IMG/VR virus record: IMGVR_UViG_3300044769_000040
Span: 1 to 62,713 of that record
Source: a virus
Lineage: Duplodnaviria; Caudoviricetes
DNA length: 62,713 nt
Reading direction: 5' to 3' (one strand)
In this document: positions 26,757 through 56,026 of the stretch, one piece after another
Layout: each line of letters starts with the position of its first letter
Position numbering within the stretch: position 1 is the first letter of the stretch
Program-made: the position numbers and the translations under genes
The notes under the pieces: model-generated
The model's database searches: none
Seen by the model: the letters and a program-made list of their open reading frames with translations, nothing else
What the model was told of the DNA's origin: nothing

Positions 26757-26957
26757 ATGAAGACTATCAGCATCTATCGTCTGGCAAAGACTGCTGGCGT
26801 GCAGCCACAGTCGCTGTACACGCAGGCGAAGCTCGGCGCGCTTCCTGCGAGGAAGACGACGTGCGATCACTGCGGGCACACGGCATGGACTGTCACGGAA
26901 TCTGACGCCGCTGCGTACCTGAAGAAGCGGGCGGATCGACAGGCAGCTCAGGCCTAA
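26757..26957 (+). CDS. MerR/Xis-like HTH protein with CxxC
   Basis: LAKTAGVQPQSLY...CDHCG; strong SD. Confidence 0.75.
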   Translation: MKTISIYRLAKTAGVQPQSLYTQAKLGALPARKTTCDHCGHTAWTVTESDAAAYLKKRADRQAAQA

Positions 26958-26960
26958 CTG

Positions 26961-27000
26961 TCAATCTGAGAGTGAGACGAAAGTCTCACTCTCGGATTGA
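26961..27000 (+). terminator. 18-bp hairpin with GAAA loop (terminator or processing stem)
   Basis: TCAATCTGAGAGTGAGAC-GAAA-GTCTCACTCTCGGATTGA. Confidence 0.7.
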
Positions 27001-27026
27001 ACGTTAGGAAAGGAGGTGAACAACAT

Positions 27027-27242
27027 ATGAACAAGCACATGGCCCGCAAGGCCACCCTGGCCCTGGTCGCCGTTGCAACCCTTTCCGGAATCGGAATCGG
27101 ACAGGCGACAGCTGGTGGTGGGACAGTCCGCGTACGCGTGCCGGTGTGTGCCGAGGACGAGACCTTCCTCAAGGGGAAGGGGGACTTCGACGGCCGACGC
27201 TGGGACCGCTACGTGTGCATCCACCCTGACAACCTGAAGTAG
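27027..27242 (+). CDS. Small secreted protein
   Basis: Strong SD; signal peptide; two Cys. Confidence 0.7.
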   Translation: MNKHMARKATLALVAVATLSGIGIGQATAGGGTVRVRVPVCAEDETFLKGKGDFDGRRWDRYVCIHPDNLK

Positions 27243-27251
27243 GGTGGACCC

Positions 27252-27281
27252 GGGAAGCCGGTCCGAAAGGGCCGGCTTCCC
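27252..27281 (+). terminator. Intrinsic terminator-like hairpin
   Basis: GGGAAGCCGGTCC-GAAA-GGGCCGGCTTCCC followed by TTAT. Confidence 0.7.
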
Positions 27282-27303
27282 TTATGCTCTATTGACAATA
27301 CTG

Positions 27304-27600
27304 GGAACACAACTTTCGACCCTGGGAGTAATTCGGCTACTTCCTAGGAACACAACTTTTCTGCATGGGACTAATTCGGCGCGGGCGGGTTGGGCTACCC
27401 TTCGGGCACATCTTTCCACAGGGCGCGGGGGGCCTATCCATCATCATAAGCAGGGGATGTTACCTCTATACCGTATTGAGGCTCTTATAACAATTAGGGC
27501 GGGTTATACTTAGTATAATAGTCAGATACCTAGTAGTCTTATTACATTATACTACATATAACTAATCCTAAGTATATATAACTAAAGGAAAAGGTGAATA
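27304..27600. other. Putative replication origin (43-bp-period tandem repeat plus AT-rich tract)
   Basis: GGAACACAACTTT-N6-TGGGA(G/C)TAATTCGGC at 27304 and 27347; very AT-rich 27484-27600; non-coding. Confidence 0.5.
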
Positions 27601-30040: not shown

Positions 30041-30128
30041 GTGCTTGAACGTCGTGCACAGGGAAGGACCGGTACCGGCTAGCCACCTACGGTGTAGGCA
30101 CCCGCTCCTGTGCACGGCCTTGAGGTAC
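30041..30128 (+). ncRNA. Structured RNA element, GAACGUC/GGCCUUG family copy 1
   Basis: GTGCTT-GAACGTC-GTGCACAGG...CCTGTGCAC-GGCCTTG-AGGTAC. Confidence 0.6.
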
Positions 30129-30681: not shown

Positions 30682-30780
30682 CGAAGGATTGAACGTCTGG
30701 CACAGACGACGCGAGCGTCTTCTTCCTCCGGCCATGGGGTGCGAGACGCTTTCCGGATGTGCCAGGCCTTGAATCCTTCG
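30682..30780 (+). ncRNA. Structured RNA element, GAACGUC/GGCCUUG family copy 2
   Basis: CGAAGGATT-GAACGTC-TGGCACA...TGTGCCA-GGCCTTG-AATCCTTCG. Confidence 0.6.
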
Positions 30781-33080: not shown

Positions 33081-33280
33081 TGGCACTCGGCGTCTGTGAG
33101 GTCCATGGAGGTGAGCCGACGGAAGTCGAGCACATCCAATTCTGTGGCGAGTCCGTCAAAGTCTGCCTATCCTGCTTGGAGACACAGACAGGCACGTCAA
33201 GCAAAGCCGAGTTCCAGGACATACAAGACGACAGGTACTACGAGTACAAGACTAAGCTGCTGGAGGCGGCAGGTAAGTAG
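33077..33280 (+). CDS. Hypothetical Zn-finger-like protein
   Basis: CEVH...CLSC. Confidence 0.6.
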   Translation: MMALGVCEVHGGEPTEVEHIQFCGESVKVCLSCLETQTGTSSKAEFQDIQDDRYYEYKTKLLEAAGK

Positions 33281-33423
33281 TACCTCGAACGTCCTGCACA
33301 GGTCAGGTAGACCCCCGTGGAGAATCTACGCCACTAAGTGGAGAACCGTAGCCACGTCTAAGGGGTTCAATACGGCTCGAGTGGATGGAAGGTCCACGCC
33401 TGTGCAGGGCCTTGGAGGTACTA
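33278..33423 (+). ncRNA. Structured RNA element, GAACGUC/GGCCUUG family copy 3
   Basis: TAGTACCTC-GAACGTC-CTGCACAGG...CCTGTGCAG-GGCCTTG-GAGGTACTA. Confidence 0.65.
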
Positions 33424-36804: not shown

Positions 36805-36834
36805 TTGAGGTTTCCCCAAGGTCTGTGGTATAAT
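36805..36834 (+). promoter_or_regulatory. SigA-like promoter TTGAGG-18-TATAAT
   Basis: Promoter family match. Confidence 0.7.
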
Positions 36835-36866: not shown

Positions 36867-37208
36867 ATGGCACAACTGGAACTGAAGGAGCTCCCGGACG
36901 GTCTTTCCGAGGACGACTACGTGAAGCCGGTGAAGCTTGCCAAGGAGCTTACAGAGGCCGAGGGCAAGGACGTGCGTCCGCAGATCGTCTACGGTTACAT
37001 CCGCAACGGTGGACTCCAGGCCTACACGAAGGGCGGCGAGGGTCGTTTCATCATCCGCTCCGAGTTCGATGCCTGGGTTCAGGAGAAGGCCCAGAAGAAG
37101 GCTGAGCGCGAGGCCAAGGCTGCGGAGAAGGCAGCCAAGAAGGCCGAGAAGGAGGCTGCTGGCGAGGCTGCAGGTGCAGAAGAGGGCACTGAGGAGTACG
37201 CCGGCTAA
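36867..37208 (+). CDS. MerR/Xis-like HTH protein with Lys/Ala/Glu tail
   Basis: KPVKLAKEL...VRPQIVYGYIRNGGL; strong SD. Confidence 0.8.
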   Translation: MAQLELKELPDGLSEDDYVKPVKLAKELTEAEGKDVRPQIVYGYIRNGGLQAYTKGGEGRFIIRSEFDAWVQEKAQKKAEREAKAAEKAAKKAEKEAAGEAAGAEEGTEEYAG

Positions 37209-37221
37209 GACCGATCACATC

Positions 37222-37666
37222 GCGAGCAGAGGGCTTCGGCCCTCTGCCTCGCTTTGAGGACTGATGGGAAAAGCGTCGCCATGGCGAAGTATGCGAGTAC
37301 TGTCAGTCCTCAAAGGGAGGCCGGTCAAGCGGACTTCGAAAGGCAGACAATCAGCTGTCGGCTCTGGGAAGTTGTCGATAGTGGTCTAGCCGAGTAGTCG
37401 AGGGGTACCCGAGGGTGGTCGTCGGATGGCCGGTCTCCCACCAACTTCATAGTGGCAACCTCGTGTTGGATGGTCGGTTTCGAGGGTAGTAGATATCGGT
37501 CTGCAGACCGGTTGAGGCAGGCACTGTGACGGGGGATCCGTGACATAGCCATGGTGGGAGCAGAAGAGATCGACCCCGACCTCCAAGCAGTAGGATCGAC
37601 CATCCAATAGGGGGCTGCCGCCTCCAAGAGAAGGCTCCTCCTCCTCCCCGAGTGGAGCCTTCTCTT
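37222..37666 (+). ncRNA. Candidate large structured non-coding RNA (five consecutive helical domains)
   Basis: Stems 37222-37252, 37252-37315, 37315-37439, 37454-37619, 37626-37666; no credible ORF. Confidence 0.6.
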
Positions 37667-37684
37667 TAGCCCTAATGACTCTCC

Positions 37685-37713
37685 TTGATATTTCCTAGAG
37701 GATGCTATAGAAT
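37685..37713 (+). promoter_or_regulatory. SigA-like promoter TTGATA-17-TAGAAT
   Basis: Promoter family match. Confidence 0.75.
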
Positions 37714-37739: not shown

Positions 37740-38258
37740 GTGGAAACGGCCCCTACCGATTCCAAAGCACCACCAGCTATCTGGCTTCACGTCCAGAAGG
37801 TGTACGATGCAATGGAGGCCCAGTCGGCCATGCTCGACGTAAGCCATCCTGAGGACACTCCTCGTTTGTACGAAGGGTTCACCTCGCACCTGTTCCAGGA
37901 GCTTGGCATCGCTGTTCCTAACTACGGACCGGTGCTAGACCTCTTACGTGCGATGGGGTGTATCACACAAGAGAAGAGGGGTGGAGGACCTTCACCCAGT
38001 GTGTGGAGGCTGTGGAGGAAACCCACCCTCGAAGACTTCGAACATGCCCACAAGACGTTGCCTCAGGCACAGATCAAGGTGCGTAAGGAACAGCACGAGG
38101 AGCAACGAATCCTCGACCTGATGAGGCAGCTCGGAGGTGTCGACGTACCTCAGGCGTTGGTTGACCTTCAAAACCAGATCAACGTTCTAGAGGGAGCCTT
38201 CAAGGGCCACATCAAGAGTCTCCACGGGAGTGATCATACACATGCAGACCTCGGCTGA
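37740..38258 (+). CDS. Hypothetical protein, possible winged helix plus coiled coil
   Basis: LDLLRAMGCITQEKRGGG wing-like motif; strong SD. Confidence 0.65.
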   Translation: METAPTDSKAPPAIWLHVQKVYDAMEAQSAMLDVSHPEDTPRLYEGFTSHLFQELGIAVPNYGPVLDLLRAMGCITQEKRGGGPSPSVWRLWRKPTLEDFEHAHKTLPQAQIKVRKEQHEEQRILDLMRQLGGVDVPQALVDLQNQINVLEGAFKGHIKSLHGSDHTHADLG

Positions 38259-40313: not shown

Positions 40314-40546
40314 TGGCAGGAGTCATTGAACACATACGCCCTCCTAGGTGCCCTGCCTCGGGGCAAGAGGTGGCTCCTATGACTGTCTCAGTAACTGAGA
40401 CTCGGGGCTACTACGCAGACTGTCCAGAGTGTAGCAAGAGGCTCTGGCTGAACAAGCATCCGGCTAGTGACAACGTCTCACTTGACTTCACCTTCCCCGA
40501 ACACATTGGCAGACAGGAACTTGAGTTTGCCAATGGGATGCTATAG
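40313..40546 (+). CDS. Zn-ribbon hypothetical protein
   Basis: CPASG...CPEC. Confidence 0.6.
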   Translation: MAGVIEHIRPPRCPASGQEVAPMTVSVTETRGYYADCPECSKRLWLNKHPASDNVSLDFTFPEHIGRQELEFANGML

Positions 40547-40852: not shown

Positions 40853-41015
40853 TGACCAATTACTTACCGACACTGGACTACTCTGTCGGGAGTGTGGTAA
40901 GTGGAGGAGGTGGTCTGACCTTGAGATAGAGTTCGAAGTATACGGGCAAGGCTTCAAGCGCATCTGGTGGTGCGCGTTTTGCGGCAACATGCTGCGCGAA
41001 GACATGGTACCATAG
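40734..41015 (+). CDS. Zn-finger hypothetical protein (start uncertain)
   Basis: CREC...CAFC. Confidence 0.5.
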   Translation: MGRKGSSTWRRHVERFQPLLKQYRKRRKHSASTWTPKRHNDQLLTDTGLLCRECGKWRRWSDLEIEFEVYGQGFKRIWWCAFCGNMLREDMVP

Positions 41016-41026
41016 AAGGAGGAAGC

Positions 41027-42139
41027 ATGAAGAAGTTGTTCACAGTACTAGCTATCGCTGGTGCGATGGTGATTCTGTCCACACAAGTTGTCTCAGCAGC
41101 CTCGGAGGTGATCTTCGACTACATTCCGAGCCCGCTTCCGGGCAACGTCTCGAGCTACAGCTACGAGTCATGGGGTGTGGCTGAGGCAGGGGATGGGATC
41201 GAGTTCAGTACGAACGGGAACCAGCTACTTGACAACGCAAGGGTCGTTGTGAGCAGTTGGGCCTGTGAGGAAGGTACGGGGTGGGCAGCTGAGAACACAG
41301 TTCCATGTGTGACTACGCCTGGTTCGACGTTCTCGATGCCAATCACGTTGAACATCTATGACCCGAACGACGACATGTCGTTGGTCGATTCAACAACGCA
41401 GACGTTCAACATTCCGTATCGCCCAAGCAGCAGCGAGAGCTGCGAGCCGACGATCAACGGTCACGGTTACGGGCCAGACTGCTTCCTGGGTCTTGCTCAT
41501 ACTATCAAGTTCGACCTGACCGGCGTTGTAGCTCCGGATGAGATCGTGTACGGTGTTGCATACAACACGGCCTCGTTCGGATACGACCCGATTGGTAACG
41601 GGGCCGAGTGTCAGGCAGTGCAGTACGCTGGCTGCGACTCGAGCCTGCTCAACCTCGGCGTCGAGGGTACAGCACCAGCCGATGTCGGAACAGACTTCTC
41701 ACCGAACGGAGCATTTCAGTACGCCGTATTCCCTTCGTCCTACTGTGATGGTGGCGAAGGTGGAACGGCCGTCTTCCGCTTCGATGACGGATGTTGGACT
41801 GGCTTCAATCCTCTCGTCCAGTTCAGCAGGTTCGTCGCTGAAGGCGGAGGCGGCGGAGGTGGGGACGGAGGTACTCCTCCTCCAACAGTGTCTGAATGCA
41901 CCATCACTGGTACAGCTGACAACGACATTCTCATCGGTACACCCGGCAATGATGTCATCTGTGCCAAGGCTGGCGATGACCTCGTCCGCGCGAAGGCAGG
42001 TAGTGACGTTGTCAAGGGCGGTAAGGGAGAGGACCTTCTAAAGGGAGGTCCAGGTCCTGACCTGCTGAAGGGCGGTCCTGGCTTTGATACCTGCAGGGGT
42101 GGAAAGGGTACAGACACGCTCGTTGGCTGTGAAGCATAG
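41027..42139 (+). CDS. Secreted protein with C-terminal RTX-like Ca-binding repeats
   Basis: Signal peptide; CTITGT...GGKGEDLLKGGPGPDLLKGGPGFD nonapeptide repeats. Confidence 0.85.
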   Translation: MKKLFTVLAIAGAMVILSTQVVSAASEVIFDYIPSPLPGNVSSYSYESWGVAEAGDGIEFSTNGNQLLDNARVVVSSWACEEGTGWAAENTVPCVTTPGSTFSMPITLNIYDPNDDMSLVDSTTQTFNIPYRPSSSESCEPTINGHGYGPDCFLGLAHTIKFDLTGVVAPDEIVYGVAYNTASFGYDPIGNGAECQAVQYAGCDSSLLNLGVEGTAPADVGTDFSPNGAFQYAVFPSSYCDGGEGGTAVFRFDDGCWTGFNPLVQFSRFVAEGGGGGGGDGGTPPPTVSECTITGTADNDILIGTPGNDVICAKAGDDLVRAKAGSDVVKGGKGEDLLKGGPGPDLLKGGPGFDTCRGGKGTDTLVGCEA

Positions 42140-42569
42140 GGACGTTGTTGGTGGGGGAGCTTCGGCTCCCCCACTACCCCTAATCTTCGTACACGGCCGT
42201 GCAGTTTGGCATATACAGGACAACGACACGAAGATGCAATGCGGACTAACTATCAAGCCGCCGCTTCGGACAACTACCGACAAACCTAAAGAGGTGTTCC
42301 TCTGCCACAGCTGTCTAGGAACCTTCGAGAGGTCTATTGTGGGAAAGGGTCGACTCACCGATAAGGAGTTGGCAATCCTGACTGACCTCGCAACAACTGG
42401 TGCCTCCAATGAGGAACTTGCCGAGCGCCACAACATCTCTCCTACCACCGTTCGAACTCATATGCAGAACATCCAGCTACGTCTAGGTCTGCATAGTAAG
42501 GTAGAAATGGTTGTGTACTTCTGGACGCGATTGTATAGGAGGGATGATGAGCCAGGAAGAGGTAACTGA
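42129..42569 (+). CDS. LuxR-family HTH regulator with N-terminal Cys/His motif (start uncertain)
   Basis: LTDKELAIL...SNEELAE...ISPTTVRTHMQNI...LG. Confidence 0.8.
   Translation: MKHRDVVGGGASAPPLPLIFVHGRAVWHIQDNDTKMQCGLTIKPPLRTTTDKPKEVFLCHSCLGTFERSIVGKGRLTDKELAILTDLATTGASNEELAERHNISPTTVRTHMQNIQLRLGLHSKVEMVVYFWTRLYRRDDEPGRGN
42151..42174 (+). terminator. GC hairpin with UUCG loop after the RTX gene
   Basis: GTGGGGGAGC-TTCG-GCTCCCCCAC. Confidence 0.55.
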
Positions 42570-45389: not shown

Positions 45390-45390
45390 C

Positions 45391-45819
45391 TTGGGCATCC
45401 CAATCCCTGGTGGCTTCGCTGATGTCGAAGATGCATTTGCTCCTCTCCCGCCTGGTACCTACGACGCTGTCGTGTTCAAGGGCGAGCTGAAGGAAGCAGG
45501 AGAGAACGCTAAGAACCCAGGCTCGCAGTACATCGCCTGGGAGTTCAACATCTTGAACGATGGCTTCGAGAAGAGGAAGGCATGGATGAACACTTCCCTC
45601 GTCCCGAACGCTCTCCCGATGTTGAAGCGTTTCCTGATCGCAGTCGGCTACGAAGAGGAGGAGCTCAACGTAGCTGACTTCGAGATTGACATCGACGAGG
45701 TTGTTAGTCGGAATGCTCGACTTGTTGTCGTCGAGAGCACCAATCCCAACACGGACGAGAAGACACACTCCGTGAAGAGGATCCTACCGGCTGGCGCAGT
45801 CGCGTCAGAACTGCCGTAG
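45391..45819 (+). CDS. ssDNA-binding protein (DUF669-like)
   Basis: FAPLPPGTY...WEF; follows the Sak4-like ATPase. Confidence 0.75.
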   Translation: MGIPIPGGFADVEDAFAPLPPGTYDAVVFKGELKEAGENAKNPGSQYIAWEFNILNDGFEKRKAWMNTSLVPNALPMLKRFLIAVGYEEEELNVADFEIDIDEVVSRNARLVVVESTNPNTDEKTHSVKRILPAGAVASELP

Positions 45820-45826
45820 GAAAGAC

Positions 45827-45900
45827 GTAAGAGCGGTATCCGGCTTCGGCCTCTCTATCGCTCTTACAGGGCGAGGGGGTTCTAACGAGCCCCCTCGCCT
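45827..45900 (+). terminator. Tandem hairpins between SSB and primase
   Basis: GTAAGAGCGGTA/TATCGCTCTTAC and GGCGAGGGGGTTC-TAAC-GAGCCCCCTCGCC. Confidence 0.55.
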
Positions 45901-45918
45901 CCATCTCGGGGAGGATAG

Positions 45919-48120: not shown

Positions 48121-48421
48121 CACGGCCTGGATGGAACTGGGTGCATGCCAGGATAGAGATGAAGACGGCAAGATCTTCTTCCCCGATCCAGGCAACAATG
48201 CCGTCATGGCAAAAAGGATGTGTGCGCGTTGTCCCGTTAGGGAGAGATGTCTTGACTGGTCGATAGAGACCCGACAGATGTACGGGATCTGGGGAGGAGT
48301 GTCAGAGAAGAAGCGTCGTCAGATGATGCACCTTCGTTACGGTAGGACTCCATACTATGCAATCATGGAGGAGGATGATGAAGACATCAGCAATAGTCCT
48401 GCTGTCGGGGGGACTCGATAG
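48077..48421 (+). CDS. whiB: WhiB-family transcription factor
   Basis: AC...FFP...CARCPVRERC...YGIWGG. Confidence 0.92.
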   Translation: MVEVNGSTRLLSRANTAWMELGACQDRDEDGKIFFPDPGNNAVMAKRMCARCPVRERCLDWSIETRQMYGIWGGVSEKKRRQMMHLRYGRTPYYAIMEEDDEDISNSPAVGGTR

Positions 48422-49085
48422 CACGACTGCGTTCTACAAGGCAATGTGGGAACGAGATGATGTCCGAGCGATCTCGTTTGACTACGGGCAACGGCATCGC
48501 AAGGAACTTGAAGCCGCTAGTTACTTCTCACGCCTACACGATGTGCCATGGCACGTTGTCAACCTTCAGACTCTTGGTGGGCTTCTGAAAGGTAGTTCGC
48601 TTAGCGATCCGGACGTCGAAGTTCCTGAAGGTCACTATGCCAAAGACACAATGAAGGCAACGATCGTTCCCAACCGCAACAGTATCATGCTAAGCTGTGC
48701 AGTCGGAGTTGCAGTTGGAAACAAGTTCCAAGAGGTCTGGGCAGCGATGCATGCAGGTGACCATGCCATCTACCCTGACTGTCGACCCGAGTTCATCGAG
48801 AAGCTGAACGAGCTTATCCCGATCGCCAACGCGTGGGAGGATCCTATCCCCAGAGTCATCACGCCCTTTATTGACTACACCAAAGACATGATTGTCAGGC
48901 TCGGATCCGACATGGGTGTCCCTTACGAACACACCTGGAGCTGCTACGAAGGTGGAAAGGTCCACTGCGGCAAGTGTGGGACCTGCGTTGAGAGGCAAGA
49001 AGCCTTCTACCTCGCAGGCGTTCAAGACCCGACCGAGTACGCTGACACCGAGTACTGGAAGGCAGAAACCGGAGTCTCTTCATGA
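48378..49085 (+). CDS. queC: 7-cyano-7-deazaguanine synthase
   Basis: LSGGLDS, VPNRN, YPDCR, SCY...HCGKCGTC. Confidence 0.95.
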   Translation: MKTSAIVLLSGGLDSTTAFYKAMWERDDVRAISFDYGQRHRKELEAASYFSRLHDVPWHVVNLQTLGGLLKGSSLSDPDVEVPEGHYAKDTMKATIVPNRNSIMLSCAVGVAVGNKFQEVWAAMHAGDHAIYPDCRPEFIEKLNELIPIANAWEDPIPRVITPFIDYTKDMIVRLGSDMGVPYEHTWSCYEGGKVHCGKCGTCVERQEAFYLAGVQDPTEYADTEYWKAETGVSS

Positions 49086-49811: not shown

Positions 49812-50086
49812 TTAGCGTCATACAGTTCCCGAACGACGTTGAACGCAAGTACGTTGTTACGGTTCGCATTGCCGATCTTATCCTAGAGAAGCTGACTAAG
49901 GAACAGTTCCGCGAGTTTACTGACTGGGACAAGCAACTACCACTTCTGGGATTTAGTCGAGTAGCCGAGGTGACCAGGTACTCTGACTTTCCGTTCTGTG
50001 ACAAGGTGTTCATCATCAAGACGGACGAAGTAGTCAAGCCAATGTTGTTCGGACATGCTCTACCATACACTGCGGAGGCTCTATGA
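49808..50086 (+). CDS. Hypothetical protein in que cluster
   Basis: 92 aa, ATGA overlaps on both sides. Confidence 0.6.
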   Translation: MISVIQFPNDVERKYVVTVRIADLILEKLTKEQFREFTDWDKQLPLLGFSRVAEVTRYSDFPFCDKVFIIKTDEVVKPMLFGHALPYTAEAL

Positions 50087-50814
50087 GGCTTCTGGAATTG
50101 TACACGACGGTTCAGGGAGAGGGGCCGAACGTTGGGAAGCCAACTACCTTCGTTCGGTTTGCAGGATGTAACATGAGGTGTCCCGGTTGGCCTTGTGATA
50201 CTCCATATGCAATCTTTCCTGAGATCTGGCGGAAGGAGGCAGAGAACGTCCCTCCTAAGGAACTGTTCCTACGAGTCAAGGAACAGACACCGATGCACAT
50301 CTGTATCACCGGAGGCGAGCCTCTCATCCAGAACCGAAGAGAGCTAACAGAGTTCCTTTGGTTCTTGCACAGCAATCGATACACGGTCGATATCTTCACT
50401 AACGGAAGTAGGCCTCTACACGGCTCTGGACCAGATCCTGATAATGAGAAGGTCAACTACCTAATGGACAACATCACCTTCATCATGGACTGGAAGCTTC
50501 CTGGAAGTGGAGAGCACCAGAACTATCTGGCTGAGCGTCATTACAACCTTGGGCAGCTTCGACCAAAGGATGCAGTCAAGCTTGTCATCAAAGACAACAA
50601 GGACCTCAAGTACGCCGAGGAGTACATCGAACGTTGGCACCATAGCTGGAAGCCTGAAGAACGGATCGATGCACAAGTGTACGTCGGTGTTGCTTGGGGT
50701 GAGATGTCAGAAGCTGACCTCGTACACTGGCTCAACGAGAAGGGCTACACCTGGGTCAAGCTCAACGTCCAAGTACACAAGTTCATTTTCGACCCGAATG
50801 AGAGAAGAATATGA
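50083..50814 (+). CDS. queE: 7-carboxy-7-deazaguanine synthase (radical SAM)
   Basis: VQGEG, FVRFAGCNMRCPGWPCDT, ITGGEP, QVHK. Confidence 0.92.
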   Translation: MRLLELYTTVQGEGPNVGKPTTFVRFAGCNMRCPGWPCDTPYAIFPEIWRKEAENVPPKELFLRVKEQTPMHICITGGEPLIQNRRELTEFLWFLHSNRYTVDIFTNGSRPLHGSGPDPDNEKVNYLMDNITFIMDWKLPGSGEHQNYLAERHYNLGQLRPKDAVKLVIKDNKDLKYAEEYIERWHHSWKPEERIDAQVYVGVAWGEMSEADLVHWLNEKGYTWVKLNVQVHKFIFDPNERRI

Positions 50815-53659: not shown

Positions 53660-56026
53660 ATGGAGAAGGCACCAGGTGCCAAGTGTGACGAATGTCCACT
53701 CAAGGAGATGAAGCATGTTCCCGGAAGCGGACCGAACAGCGCGGCTCTTGCGGTCGTCGGAGAAGCCCCCGGTGCAGGAGAAATCGCAACAGGAGTTCCC
53801 TTCTCCGGAGTCTCCGGACAACTCCTCAACAACATCCTCAAGTACCACGGAATCAAACGAGAGGAGACCTATGTCACAAACGTCGTCCTATGTCGCCCCC
53901 CAGACAATCGGACACCAACGACAAAAGAGATTGGGGCCTGTCACAATCGCCTCATCCAGGAGCTTCGGGGTACAGGAGCCAAGAGTGTTCTCGCGTTGGG
54001 AGCTACAGCTGCGCAGTCACTTCTGGCCTCACGGACTGCTATTAGTAAACTTCGGACTGAACCAGACTTGGCGTCGCCGTACTTGGGATCTGGAGTTCAT
54101 GTCATCCCTACATTCCACCCAGCGGCGGCACTCCGGACACCTGACTATTTCCCGTCCATCCTCAAAGATGTCGCAAAGATCAATGCTGTACAGGTTGTAT
54201 GGGAACACACTAAATACCAGGTGGTCGACAACGAAGTCAAAGCAAGGGACCTCCTCAGCAAGCAAGTAGAACAGGCAGCTGGTAACGGAGGCATCATAAC
54301 CTTCGACGCAGAGCTTGACATCGAAGCAATCAAAGGTGCAGTCGATCTAAAGAACCCAGTGTGGCTATGTGCAGGTATCTCATCGAGACCAGGAGCTGCC
54401 GTTGTTTACACCCCAGAGGTATTGACTCCAAACTTTTGGGCACAATTGAACGATACCTTCCTTGACAACCGTCTTCGTTGGACATACCAGAACGGTAAGT
54501 TCGATATTCAGCCCCTGTGGGGGTCTGGTGTCACGAACGCCCGCGTTGACGAAGACACGATGCTAATGCACTACAGCACAGATGAGAGGAAAGGTACACA
54601 TGACCTTGAACAACTGGCGGTTGAGATACTGGGAGCACCGGCTTACAAAACGGATACCCGTCGTTTTCTTCCTCGTACTGGGGCGTCTCTTCGTTATCTG
54701 CCTCCTGATATTCTTCATCAGTATAATGCTGCTGATGCCGATGTTACTCATAGGCTGGTGGATCCTCTCCAATCTGAGATGAAGTCAGACGGTGTCGAGC
54801 GGCCTTACTACGAGCTTCTGATTCCGGGTAGTGATGTACTTGGTAGGGCTGAGTACTTGGGTACTAAGGTCGACCGAGACCGTCTAGATGAACTGGCAGA
54901 CGAGTTGTGGGAGGAGTTGATACCTAAGCGGAAGGAACTAGAACAGTGGGTAGCGAACCCGAACTCTCCGAAGCAGATCAAAGCAATGCTTGATGACGTC
55001 TATGACATCGACACGGAGAGTACAGACAAGGAACACCTACAAGCCATAAAGGAGAAGCATGGAGGAGAAATCGGAGAGTTCGTTAGCAAGCTTCTGGACT
55101 ATCGTCAGCAAGCCAAGCTACGTTCCACATACGTTGTCGGACTTGCTAAGCGCCTGGTTCGAAGTCGAGTCCATACTACATTCCTCCTTCATGGCACGGA
55201 CACCGGCCGTCTTTCCAGCAGGAATCCAAATCTTCAAAACATTCCGTCTGGATCCAAAATTCGTGACCTCTACGTCGCTGGTCCGGAAAACGTATTACTC
55301 AGTGCTGACTATAGCCAAATTGAATTTCGTCTCGCCGCCATCCTATCTGGAGATGAATGGCTTCTTGACCAGTTTAGGCAAAACCGGTCGTTTCACACGG
55401 AAGTGGCCCACCGGTTCTTCGGAGAAGATTATACGGAACTACAGTATCTCCGGGCAAAGGCAGTCAACTTTGGCATCCTATACCTTAGAGGAGCTAAGTC
55501 CCTCGCAGATGAACACAAGTTTCCAGTTGCAGAGGGCTATCGAATGATCCGAGAGTTCTACCAACAGATGCCCAAAGTGAAGGAGTACCAGGATGACATC
55601 CACCGCCAGATCCGTCACAACGGCTACCTTGAATCCTACTTCGGACGTAAGCGACGCTTCTGGCTCGTTACAAGAGAGAATTGGCATATGGTATCTAAGG
55701 AGGGAGTTGCGTTCCCTACACAATCTGCTGCTTCTGATCTCAATCTACAAAGTGCAATCCGCCTTGAACCTCTACTACGCGGAAAGGCTGCTGTGCTTAT
55801 CCCAGTACATGACTCTCTTGTCTTTGAATGCCGCCGACAGTACCTCGAAGAGGTAGCATACACAGTTCGCGAAGTGATGGAAGATACACCCGTCAGAGAC
55901 ATCTGTCCAACACCAATCGAAATCAAGGTCGGTCTCAAGTGGGGATCACACCGTGGGAGGTGCCCTGATAGAGTGTGCTACCACCTGAAGGAGTACAAGG
56001 GAGGTCCGTATGTCGCAGCAGCCTGA
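53660..56026 (+). CDS. polA: Family A DNA polymerase with N-terminal family-4 uracil-DNA glycosylase domain
   Basis: UDG4: CDEC, GEAPG, CRPP, HPAA. Exo: DAE, NGKFD, YNAAD. Pol: DYSQIE, KAVNFG..Y, VHDS. Confidence 0.93.
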   Translation: MEKAPGAKCDECPLKEMKHVPGSGPNSAALAVVGEAPGAGEIATGVPFSGVSGQLLNNILKYHGIKREETYVTNVVLCRPPDNRTPTTKEIGACHNRLIQELRGTGAKSVLALGATAAQSLLASRTAISKLRTEPDLASPYLGSGVHVIPTFHPAAALRTPDYFPSILKDVAKINAVQVVWEHTKYQVVDNEVKARDLLSKQVEQAAGNGGIITFDAELDIEAIKGAVDLKNPVWLCAGISSRPGAAVVYTPEVLTPNFWAQLNDTFLDNRLRWTYQNGKFDIQPLWGSGVTNARVDEDTMLMHYSTDERKGTHDLEQLAVEILGAPAYKTDTRRFLPRTGASLRYLPPDILHQYNAADADVTHRLVDPLQSEMKSDGVERPYYELLIPGSDVLGRAEYLGTKVDRDRLDELADELWEELIPKRKELEQWVANPNSPKQIKAMLDDVYDIDTESTDKEHLQAIKEKHGGEIGEFVSKLLDYRQQAKLRSTYVVGLAKRLVRSRVHTTFLLHGTDTGRLSSRNPNLQNIPSGSKIRDLYVAGPENVLLSADYSQIEFRLAAILSGDEWLLDQFRQNRSFHTEVAHRFFGEDYTELQYLRAKAVNFGILYLRGAKSLADEHKFPVAEGYRMIREFYQQMPKVKEYQDDIHRQIRHNGYLESYFGRKRRFWLVTRENWHMVSKEGVAFPTQSAASDLNLQSAIRLEPLLRGKAAVLIPVHDSLVFECRRQYLEEVAYTVREVMEDTPVRDICPTPIEIKVGLKWGSHRGRCPDRVCYHLKEYKGGPYVAAA

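Follow-up and report, generated by a model that had tools for sequence, protein, structure and literature searches.

A previously undescribed structured RNA region lies 3' of a small HTH regulator gene in an uncultured phage genome; it is most probably a modular 3'UTR or precursor rather than a single conserved large RNA. The window, i.e. the whole stretch of DNA that was analysed, was a complete 62.7-kb virus record (62,713 nt; IMG/VR record IMGVR_UViG_3300044769_000040). The structured region most likely makes up the untranslated 3' part of an early, monocistronic transcription unit composed of a promoter, the HTH_17 gene, H1, H2, D3, a linker, D4 and T (Table 1), in which H2, D3 and D4 are independent domains, each shut by a long stem. 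Whether it serves as a long modular regulatory or processing 3'UTR of the plus strand, ending at T and perhaps releasing a D4-T RNA with a C-rich seed, is to our mind about an even call; a precursor that yields smaller RNAs is plausible. The decoy role (RNA polymerase or defence protein) suggested in the first-pass annotation is a conjecture that the results neither favour nor disfavour.

Table 1. Features of the HTH unit and its 3' flank (coordinates refer to the window)
Feature	Coordinates	Strand	Basis or remarks
Sigma-70-like promoter of the HTH unit: TTGAGG, 18 nt, TG-TATAAT	36805..36834	+	predicted; consensus scan, 10/12 matches
HTH_17 / excisionase-like small regulator gene, 113 aa, Lys/Ala/Glu-rich tail	36867..37208	+	Pfam, PHROG
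H1: GC-rich hairpin, arms GCAGAGGGC/GCCCTCTGC, TTCG (UUCG) loop, directly after the HTH stop codon	37222..37252	+	
H2: perfect 13-bp stem, 37252-37264/37303-37315	37246..37321	+	variable interior of ~38 nt
D3: 12-bp closing stem, 37315-37326/37428-37439	37315..37439	+	multibranch interior, 101 nt
Single-stranded linker ACCAACUUCAUAGU with conserved CAACU motif, between D3 and D4	37440..37453	+	
D4: 16-bp core stem, 37464-37479/37594-37609	37454..37619	+	multibranch interior, 114 nt
T: perfect 13-bp hairpin, 37626-37638/37654-37666, 15-nt loop UCCUCCUCCCCGAGU	37626..37666	+	anti-Shine-Dalgarno-like loop
Sigma-70-like promoter of the downstream gene: TTGATA, 17 nt, TAGAAT	37685..37713	+	predicted; 10/12 matches
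172-aa gene	37740..38258	+	position 3' of the RNA slot kept across the phage clade

Genome context, flanking genes and promoters

Genes of the window were on the minus strand up to ~28 kb and then on the plus strand to ~60 kb, and the structured region was placed in the early and replication part of the genome. The order was as follows: promoter, 113-aa HTH_17 gene, 531 nt without a gene, second promoter, 172-aa gene, 95-aa gene and SNF2 helicase gene. Farther 3' were the genes for a PD-(D/E)XK nuclease, AAA_24, DUF669, a primase-like protein, WhiB, QueC, a radical-SAM protein and a family A polymerase. The HTH gene matched Pfam HTH_17 (E 1.3e-4, 22.6 bits, under the cut-off of 27) and PHROG 66 'excisionase and transcriptional regulator' (E 7e-4), and a PDB sequence search with the HTH alignment gave no match. 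The 172-aa protein reached Atlas scores of at most 0.84 toward IclR/HTH_5-like clusters and is possibly a winged-helix regulator, which is given here as a lead only.

WhiB is known only from actinobacteria and their phages. As a WhiB gene was present in the window (75.4 bits), and was the one indication of the host, the phage probably infects actinobacteria. Cultured relatives were searched for at the DNA level among GenBank phages, with no match; the 172-aa protein had no match among GenBank phage proteins, and the polymerase was at most 32% identical to those of cultured phages in the GenBank phage protein search. A search for prophages, made with the alignments of the HTH and 172-aa proteins against a single genome of each species, returned none. 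Two other stretches of the window were considered as non-coding and rejected: a second large region (45390-45918), where the DUF669 protein is encoded, and the gap 48121-48356, which encodes WhiB.

Promoters were predicted before the HTH gene and after T, with none inside the structured region. An internal promoter at the linker was also considered and rejected: its TTGACA-like part had no consistently spaced -10 element, and the scan listed none there either. The promoter between T and the 172-aa gene (37685-37713) was also found in L005, one of the related loci, and similar copies were located near 40521 and 57295; most of the relatives, like the window, had a separate promoter for the downstream gene. 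When the phage genome was searched for repeats of the region, the promoter segment alone was repeated, and the region did not behave as a MITE or mobile repeat.

Coding potential and known RNA families

The region is non-coding, in agreement with the first-pass annotation, which had described ~450 nt of non-coding sequence here. Between the structured blocks of L005 and L006 (viral contigs), mismatches were spread flatly over the codon phases (9, 6, 7 and 18, 15, 24) and indels (1, 2, 3 and 19 nt) did not keep to multiples of three, whereas mismatches in the flanking genes of the same two loci were periodic (6, 5, 18; 17, 3, 2; 65, 20, 23). ORFs of 37-146 aa in the region were unconserved in the relatives on both strands.

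No covariance model of Rfam 15 matched the window at the gathering threshold; the set included large ornate RNAs, 6S, 6C, RNase P, SRP and ribozymes. Matches obtained in permissive mode were at chance level, the best being MIR815 (21.1 bits, threshold 63) and ar14 (17.6 bits, threshold 58.8), and 6C was absent among the Rfam matches to the region with E<=10. The regions of the relatives were likewise negative with Rfam, apart from a tRNA in L130, and ARAGORN detected 0 tRNA or tmRNA genes in the window and 0 in 29 related loci. The earlier failure to match the region to tRNA, tmRNA, SRP, RNase P or a small ribozyme was upheld by the Rfam, tRNA and tmRNA tests.

Helices, folding strength and strand

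The five helices on which the first-pass annotation had built its description were all located by sequence inspection and repeat search (Table 1). H2 can be extended to 19-nt arms (37246-37264/37303-37321, 95% complementary), and the stem of D4 to 23-nt arms (37454-37476/37597-37619); H1 and H2 are spaced by 0-1 nt. The GGGAGG at 37315-37320 has alternative partners, either upstream, where it lengthens H2, or downstream, where it closes D3.

The plus strand of 37205-37680 folded with -228.6 kcal/mol, compared with -183.1 +/- 6.8 kcal/mol in 100 shuffles (z -6.74; 0/100 as good), and the minus strand with -193.2 kcal/mol (z -3.99). For the single modules H1+H2, D3, D4 and T, z was -5.40, -4.66, -5.60 and -4.47 on the plus strand and -4.86, -1.26, -4.16 and -2.90 on the minus strand, respectively, so that D3 is almost exclusively a plus-strand structure. 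The plus-strand fold contained 18 G-U pairs and the minus-strand fold 9, and the overall advantage of the plus strand was 37 kcal/mol. The earlier argument for a plus-strand RNA, drawn from frequent G-U pairs, is in line with these values: the energetics favour a plus-strand RNA, short of proof. Folds with DNA parameters were significant too (z -5.12 plus, -3.50 minus), and energetics alone therefore leave a DNA hairpin possible. In a sliding scan of the whole genome (150 nt), other spots folded locally just as strongly; what is unusual about the region is its length (531 nt without a gene) and its long-range stems, not its local stability.

The T loop of the window holds CCUCC three times. 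Among the 61 hairpins of the genome with a stem of at least 10 bp, only 2 had CCUCC in the loop, namely T and one inside a minus-strand ORF. T is a probable terminator with a weak U tract: it is followed by UUAGCCC in the window, and by UUUUU in L005 and UUUU in L006. A terminator scan that allowed loops of up to 8 nt missed T in the window, because its loop is longer than 8 nt and its U tract weak, and called none in L005 or L006.

Conservation in HTH-linked relatives

Homologues of the HTH protein were collected from metagenomes (22 proteins; 18 loci; 5 viral loci), and about 10 of the proteins were near-identical. The sequence 3' of these homologues nearly always carried a GC-rich hairpin, a long stem with variable interior and a terminal hairpin, and a further stem-closed domain was sometimes inserted. 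H1-H2 and T recurred in this position in 9 related uncultured phage loci, and the more distant relatives retained H1, H2 and T only.

Compensatory changes affected 18 of the 27 pairs of H1-H2 over 7 loci (H1 5/9, H2 13/18) and 7 of the 12 pairs of the T stem over 8 loci. Paired cells in H1-H2 amounted to 91.5%, compared with 75.9 +/- 2.0 in shuffles (0/500 reached the observed value) and 35-61% in slid controls. A covariance model of H1-H2 (R2), built from 7 loci, found two unused loci at the expected place (L020, 39.5 bits; L023, 29 bits) and nothing convincing outside the expected places. The T loop contained CCUCC(C) in 8/8 aligned relatives and GCCUCCC(U/A)G in distant ones. Purifying selection acts on the stems of H1, H2 and T and on the closing stems of D3 and D4.

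The homologue and covariation check therefore held for part of the region: H1-H2, T and the closing stems carry compensatory changes, whereas the interiors of D3 and D4, compared as single-sequence folds, stayed at the level of slid controls: in either set, roughly half of the pairs with a change were still paired. One conserved large fold is not borne out by relatives that keep H1, H2 and T only and by covariation that is found in closing stems and not in interiors.

Tetraloop hairpins that resemble H1 were present after other genes of the window (36405, 42149 and 45869), and R2 also gave a weak match at 42145-42210. Since similar hairpins follow several genes, H1 is regarded as a generic gene-end hairpin of this phage.

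Modular layout in the nearest relatives

L005 and L006 matched the window in separate blocks: H1, H2 and D3 at 75-76% identity, the linker and the start of D4 (28-31 nt) at 93-96% identity despite a different upstream context, and T with the downstream promoter at 76-89% identity. Between D3 and the linker, both loci carry a 68-aa ORF, a 31-aa hydrophobic ORF, the mRNA of which forms a ~30-bp hairpin, and a further hairpin. The closing stem of D4 is kept in both through compensatory changes around an interior of ~280 nt that differs from that of the window. The D3 closing stem was conserved in 4 loci (window, L005, L006 and L019); L019 shares H1, H2 and the 68-aa ORF with L005 and L006, and its D3 is a different one. 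In L005, the stretch that leads from D3 to the small ORFs had no predicted promoter, so that transcription of these ORFs has to pass through H1-H2-D3.

A single conserved large fold is not supported by this layout, in which D3 and D4 are split by two small genes in the nearest relatives and the interior of D4 differs. The contiguous 450 nt of the window therefore consists of two structured intercistronic or 3' blocks that became adjacent when these small genes were lost.

Viral contigs were also scanned with sequence patterns. The pattern GGTACCCGAGGGTGGT gave 8 stretches, of which only 2, both already-known relatives, were real; the pattern TGGGGTGTCAGCCSC gave 81 stretches, 0 of them with the expected hairpin context. 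The k-mers in common were short ones only.

RNA-library contigs

Part of the stretch was found in 6 metatranscriptome RNA runs, and contigs were compared for 4 of these (X8, X20, X21 and X23). Contigs of this kind cannot give RNA ends, strand or abundance, and RNA libraries may contain DNA. The HTH gene was covered in 4/4 runs and parts of 37266-37600 in 3/4 (X8, X20 and X21). X8 covered the whole stretch, with a contig of depth 27 that ended at 37600 and another of depth 6.5 that went on; X20 had contigs at 37266-37470 and 37448-37598 in addition to the HTH gene, X21 a contig at 37283-37455 in addition to the HTH gene, and X23 the HTH gene only. Stretches without contig cover, e.g. 37212-37265 in X20, X21 and X23, carry no evidential weight.

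Contig ends clustered in the linker and the 5' arm of D4 (37448, 37455 and 37470) and in the 3' arm of D4 (37598 in X20 and 37600 in X8). Contigs that extend past H1 accord with the transcription beyond the first hairpin that the original annotation implied; together with the clustered ends, they are a weak hint of transcription past H1 and of processing at these sites.

The same slot in a wider phage clade

With an alignment of the 172-aa protein, 21 more viral loci were found. In these, the HTH-like gene is weakly homologous (E 1e-3 to 9e-7); after it come a gap, in most cases a small acidic ORF, and then the homologue of the 172-aa gene. The 16 gaps examined were 140-940 nt long and highly structured, without a conserved ORF. 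A sequence-conserved three-way-junction domain (group 2) was common to 7 of these loci; its covariance model (R1) scored its 7 source loci with 65-99 bits and the window with 10 bits at best (E 5.6), at another place and on the minus strand. L130 holds a tRNA (Rfam, 30.8 bits) immediately 5' of the linker, and L125 a T-arm-like hairpin.

A linker motif, (U)GA-CAACU-nAAnA (CCACCAACUUCAUAGU in the window), was present between helices in 12 loci. It had no conserved pairing partner and, in the wider clade, no consistently spaced promoter elements. GGUAG followed the linker within 45 nt in 7/13 loci, with 0.05 expected per locus, and forms part of the 5' strand in the closing stem that comes next. 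The terminal hairpins of the wider clade had mostly C-rich loops.

The slot looks like a store of exchangeable structured RNAs, because its gaps hold varied structured RNAs together with a common linker and C-rich terminal loops. A tentative and doubtful extension, which covers ~30 distinct loci, is that, across a broad clade of uncultured phages with probably actinobacterial hosts, the slot is an island of RNA genes, with exchangeable large structured RNAs of 0.15-0.95 kb that share a CAACU processing or recognition motif and a C-rich terminal loop and serve host takeover. Members would be the H2-D3-D4-T array of the window, the three-way-junction domain (7 loci) and the tRNA (1 locus). Such RNAs might, for example, titrate or block Shine-Dalgarno sequences or ribosomes, or might be decoys for host RNA-binding defence proteins.

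Proposed function and alternative explanations

If the region is a regulatory or processing 3'UTR, as we prefer, its long stems and AU-rich linker would be processing or stability signals, the stems being open to RNase III and the linker to a cut of the RNase E/J/Y type. Cleavage would leave the HTH mRNA capped or protected by H1-H2-D3 and would set free a stable D4-T fragment of ~220 nt. The C-rich T loop could base-pair at GGAGG ribosome-binding sites, either in the 5' leader of its own transcript, as with icaR (cis action), or in other transcripts, as with 6C and further sRNAs whose loops are rich in C (trans action). Between the 3' region and the 5' leader of the HTH gene, the best duplex had -26.6 kcal/mol, which is not above chance (-22.9 +/- 3.0 kcal/mol in shuffles), and was outside the T loop. 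The complementarity of CCUCC is itself little informative, because any CCUCC complements nearly every ribosome-binding site of the phage.

A dedicated large ncRNA or RNA-gene island that acts as RNA (scaffold, sponge or decoy, ribosome-directed, or GOLLD/ROOL-like), with the HTH gene only lending its promoter, is unlikely. Such an RNA would account for the multibranched and strongly stable D3 and D4, for the structured sequence of 140-940 nt that the same HTH-like/172-aa slot holds in 16 further gaps, and for the slots with the three-way-junction domain (7 loci) or the tRNA (30.8 bits); GOLLD and ROOL occur in phages, frequently close to tRNAs (PMC12286853). It would leave unexplained that no Rfam family matched, large ornate ones included, that module content varies even between close relatives, with ORFs breaking the region in L005, L006 and L019, that the interiors have no covariation support, and that the group-2 domain is missing from the window. 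The same read-through in L005, L006 and L019, where H1-H2-D3 must be passed for the downstream ORFs to be expressed, speaks against termination and insulation only, i.e. a stack of terminator or stabiliser hairpins, plus remnants of a deleted small-gene cassette, that would separate the HTH unit from the replication genes. Terminators do not need the conserved sequence of the T loop and linker, and D3 and D4 are large multibranch domains rather than hairpins; we consider this explanation decidedly unlikely, with due weight to the H1-type hairpins after several other genes, to the place of T immediately before the next promoter, to the origin of the contiguous block by gene loss that the relatives indicate, and to the fact that covariation in simple stems is expected of terminators too. 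Were the region a set of tandem stabiliser or terminator hairpins only, it would be chiefly an annotation point.

A cis antitermination or attenuation element, at the position of lambda nutR or HK022 putR, would modify RNA polymerase or switch structure and so control read-through of T into the replication genes. The layout, with an early promoter, a small HTH gene, structured RNA, a terminator-like hairpin and then regulator and replication genes, parallels PR-cro-nutR-tR1 of lambda; H1 and H2 abut at 0-1 nt, and the GGGAGG at 37315-37320 can pair either way, with H2 or in the closure of D3. However, read-through of T is not needed where a good promoter serves the downstream gene directly, as in the window and most of the relatives; nothing that resembles boxA/boxB or put was found, and the module content is variable, all of which makes such an element quite improbable. 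Still less probable, indeed very improbable, is a DNA-level element (an origin, a cruciform or a protein-binding array) beside the replication module. The region does adjoin the SNF2 helicase, nuclease, AAA_24, primase-like and polymerase genes, and both strands fold significantly with DNA parameters, but the bias of 37 kcal/mol toward the plus strand, the strand preference of D3 (z -4.66 against -1.26), the G-U pairs (18 against 9) and the RNA-library contigs over the region point to RNA. Iterons, direct repeats, tandem repeats and an AT-rich tract were searched for in the region and none was found, and the GC skew changes sign near 28 kb, not at the structured region.

Comparison with known systems

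For a few model bacteria, there is a good record of long regulatory 3'UTRs and of sRNAs that originate from them; for phages, to our knowledge, there is hardly any. If the reading as a regulatory or processing 3'UTR is true, the region would be a phage example, backed comparatively by the covariation of its stems and by the conservation of its loop motif and linker. Its evolution is modular, as domains have been acquired, lost or exchanged around small genes, and the slot of the wider clade is a defined candidate set for asking what role large phage RNAs have.

The RNase III sites of the T7 early region and the lambda sib retroregulator are long stems at intercistronic or 3' positions of early phage transcripts. 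The stems described here could likewise be cut and could leave protective 3' hairpins, for which the contig ends at the D4 arms are a weak hint; they differ in enclosing large interiors, and their cleavage is only proposed. Like lambda nutR and HK022 putR, the region comes after a small early HTH gene and before a terminator-like hairpin, with the replication genes farther downstream; unlike them, it is followed by a gene with its own promoter, and no boxA/boxB or put features were found in it.

The 3'UTR of the Staphylococcus aureus icaR mRNA carries an anti-Shine-Dalgarno motif, UCCCCUG (PMC3868564). The likeness consists of a small HTH regulator gene followed by a 3'UTR of several hundred nt with a C-rich anti-Shine-Dalgarno motif, and of double-stranded segments suited to RNase III. 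The phage motif differs in being placed in a terminal hairpin loop, in a UTR that is far more structured and modular and whose pairing with its own leader is not above chance; the two are unrelated in sequence.

sRNAs with C-rich loops are known in actinobacteria (PMC6486639). Compared with the actinobacterial 6C/B11 sRNA, the phage region gave no 6C match with E<=10, has one C-rich loop rather than two, is located at the end of an mRNA rather than in a free-standing gene, and is phage-encoded; what the two have in common is a C-rich hairpin loop that could pair with G-rich ribosome-binding sites, in a host that is probably actinobacterial in the case of the phage.

In GOLLD, the 3' part is conserved and the 5' part varies (PMC12286853). 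Set against GOLLD and ROOL, the phage region had no covariance-model match and no conserved global fold or pseudoknots in the present comparison, and it consists of exchangeable modules that are interrupted by ORFs in relatives. It shares with them that it is phage-borne, several hundred nt long and heavily structured, with a variable 5' and a better conserved 3' part and, in the slot of one relative, a tRNA.

Candidate RNA elements and small genes in the related phages

In seven contigs of the wider phage clade, the slot between the HTH-like gene and the 172-aa gene contains a common domain of ~100 nt, GGGACAACGCUGCUGAGUG ... AGGCAAACCAGGCACUGGUGUCCC, which is conserved in sequence and variable in its middle hairpin. 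The domain had no Rfam match in these contigs and is a candidate new RNA motif.

In L130, another contig of this clade, a tRNA (Rfam, 30.8 bits vs a threshold of 29) lies directly 5' of the CAACU linker, a single-stranded motif between helices; ARAGORN did not call this tRNA. A T-arm-like GGAGGUUCGAAUCCUCC occupies the same slot in L125. Outside the slot, L124 carries a hammerhead type II match below threshold (28.9 bits, E 0.073; the gathering score is 37).

The nearest related viral contigs, L005 and L006, carry two small genes that the window lacks. One is an ORF of 68 aa; the other encodes a hydrophobic peptide of 31 aa, MW(W)IPFAVVG..., and its coding sequence forms a ~30-bp hairpin, a feature reminiscent of type I toxin mRNAs.

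Other elements and genes of the window

The strand-switch region, in which GC drops to 0.37, contains very long hairpins and an AT-rich palindrome; a divergent promoter or an origin may lie here. In the early region, three long-range inverted repeats have the arm motifs TTGAACGTCnnGCACAGG ... CCTGTGCAnGGCCTTGA in common, and each is followed immediately 3' by a GGAGG that resembles a Shine-Dalgarno site. The three have the look of a repeated family of stem-closed elements.

Coordinates of the elements and genes (window unless a contig is named)
Feature	Position
Strand-switch region	26950-27580
Very long hairpins, GAAA loop	26953-27008; 27252-27281
AT-rich palindrome (26-nt arms, TATAAT-like words)	27494-27571
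Long-range inverted repeats	30041-30128; 30682-30780; 33278-33423
390-aa protein, RTX calcium-binding nonapeptide repeats, among replication genes	40967-42139
UUCG hairpin, 3' of the RTX-repeat gene	42149-42176
WhiB-like, QueC, radical-SAM (QueE-like), DUF1996, family A polymerase genes (ranges given jointly)	48131-48421, 48357-49085, 50083-50814, 53660-56026
68-aa ORF and 31-aa peptide gene	L005 2219-2521; L006 about 547-880
~100-nt domain	L124 1845-1951; L125 1912-2077; L127 2112-2222; L132 2121-2229; L134 2101-2207; L136 2129-2230; L138 2126-2226
tRNA	L130 1438-1514
T-arm-like sequence	L125 about 1645-1665
Hammerhead type II match, sub-threshold	L124 511-555

A WhiB-like gene (75.4 bits) was located inside an apparent gap of the window. 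The phage also encodes QueC, a radical-SAM (QueE-like) protein, a DUF1996 protein and a family A polymerase, the N-terminal part of which is a uracil-DNA-glycosylase-superfamily domain. Taken together, these genes are a hint that the phage DNA carries 7-deazaguanine modifications and that the host is an actinobacterium.
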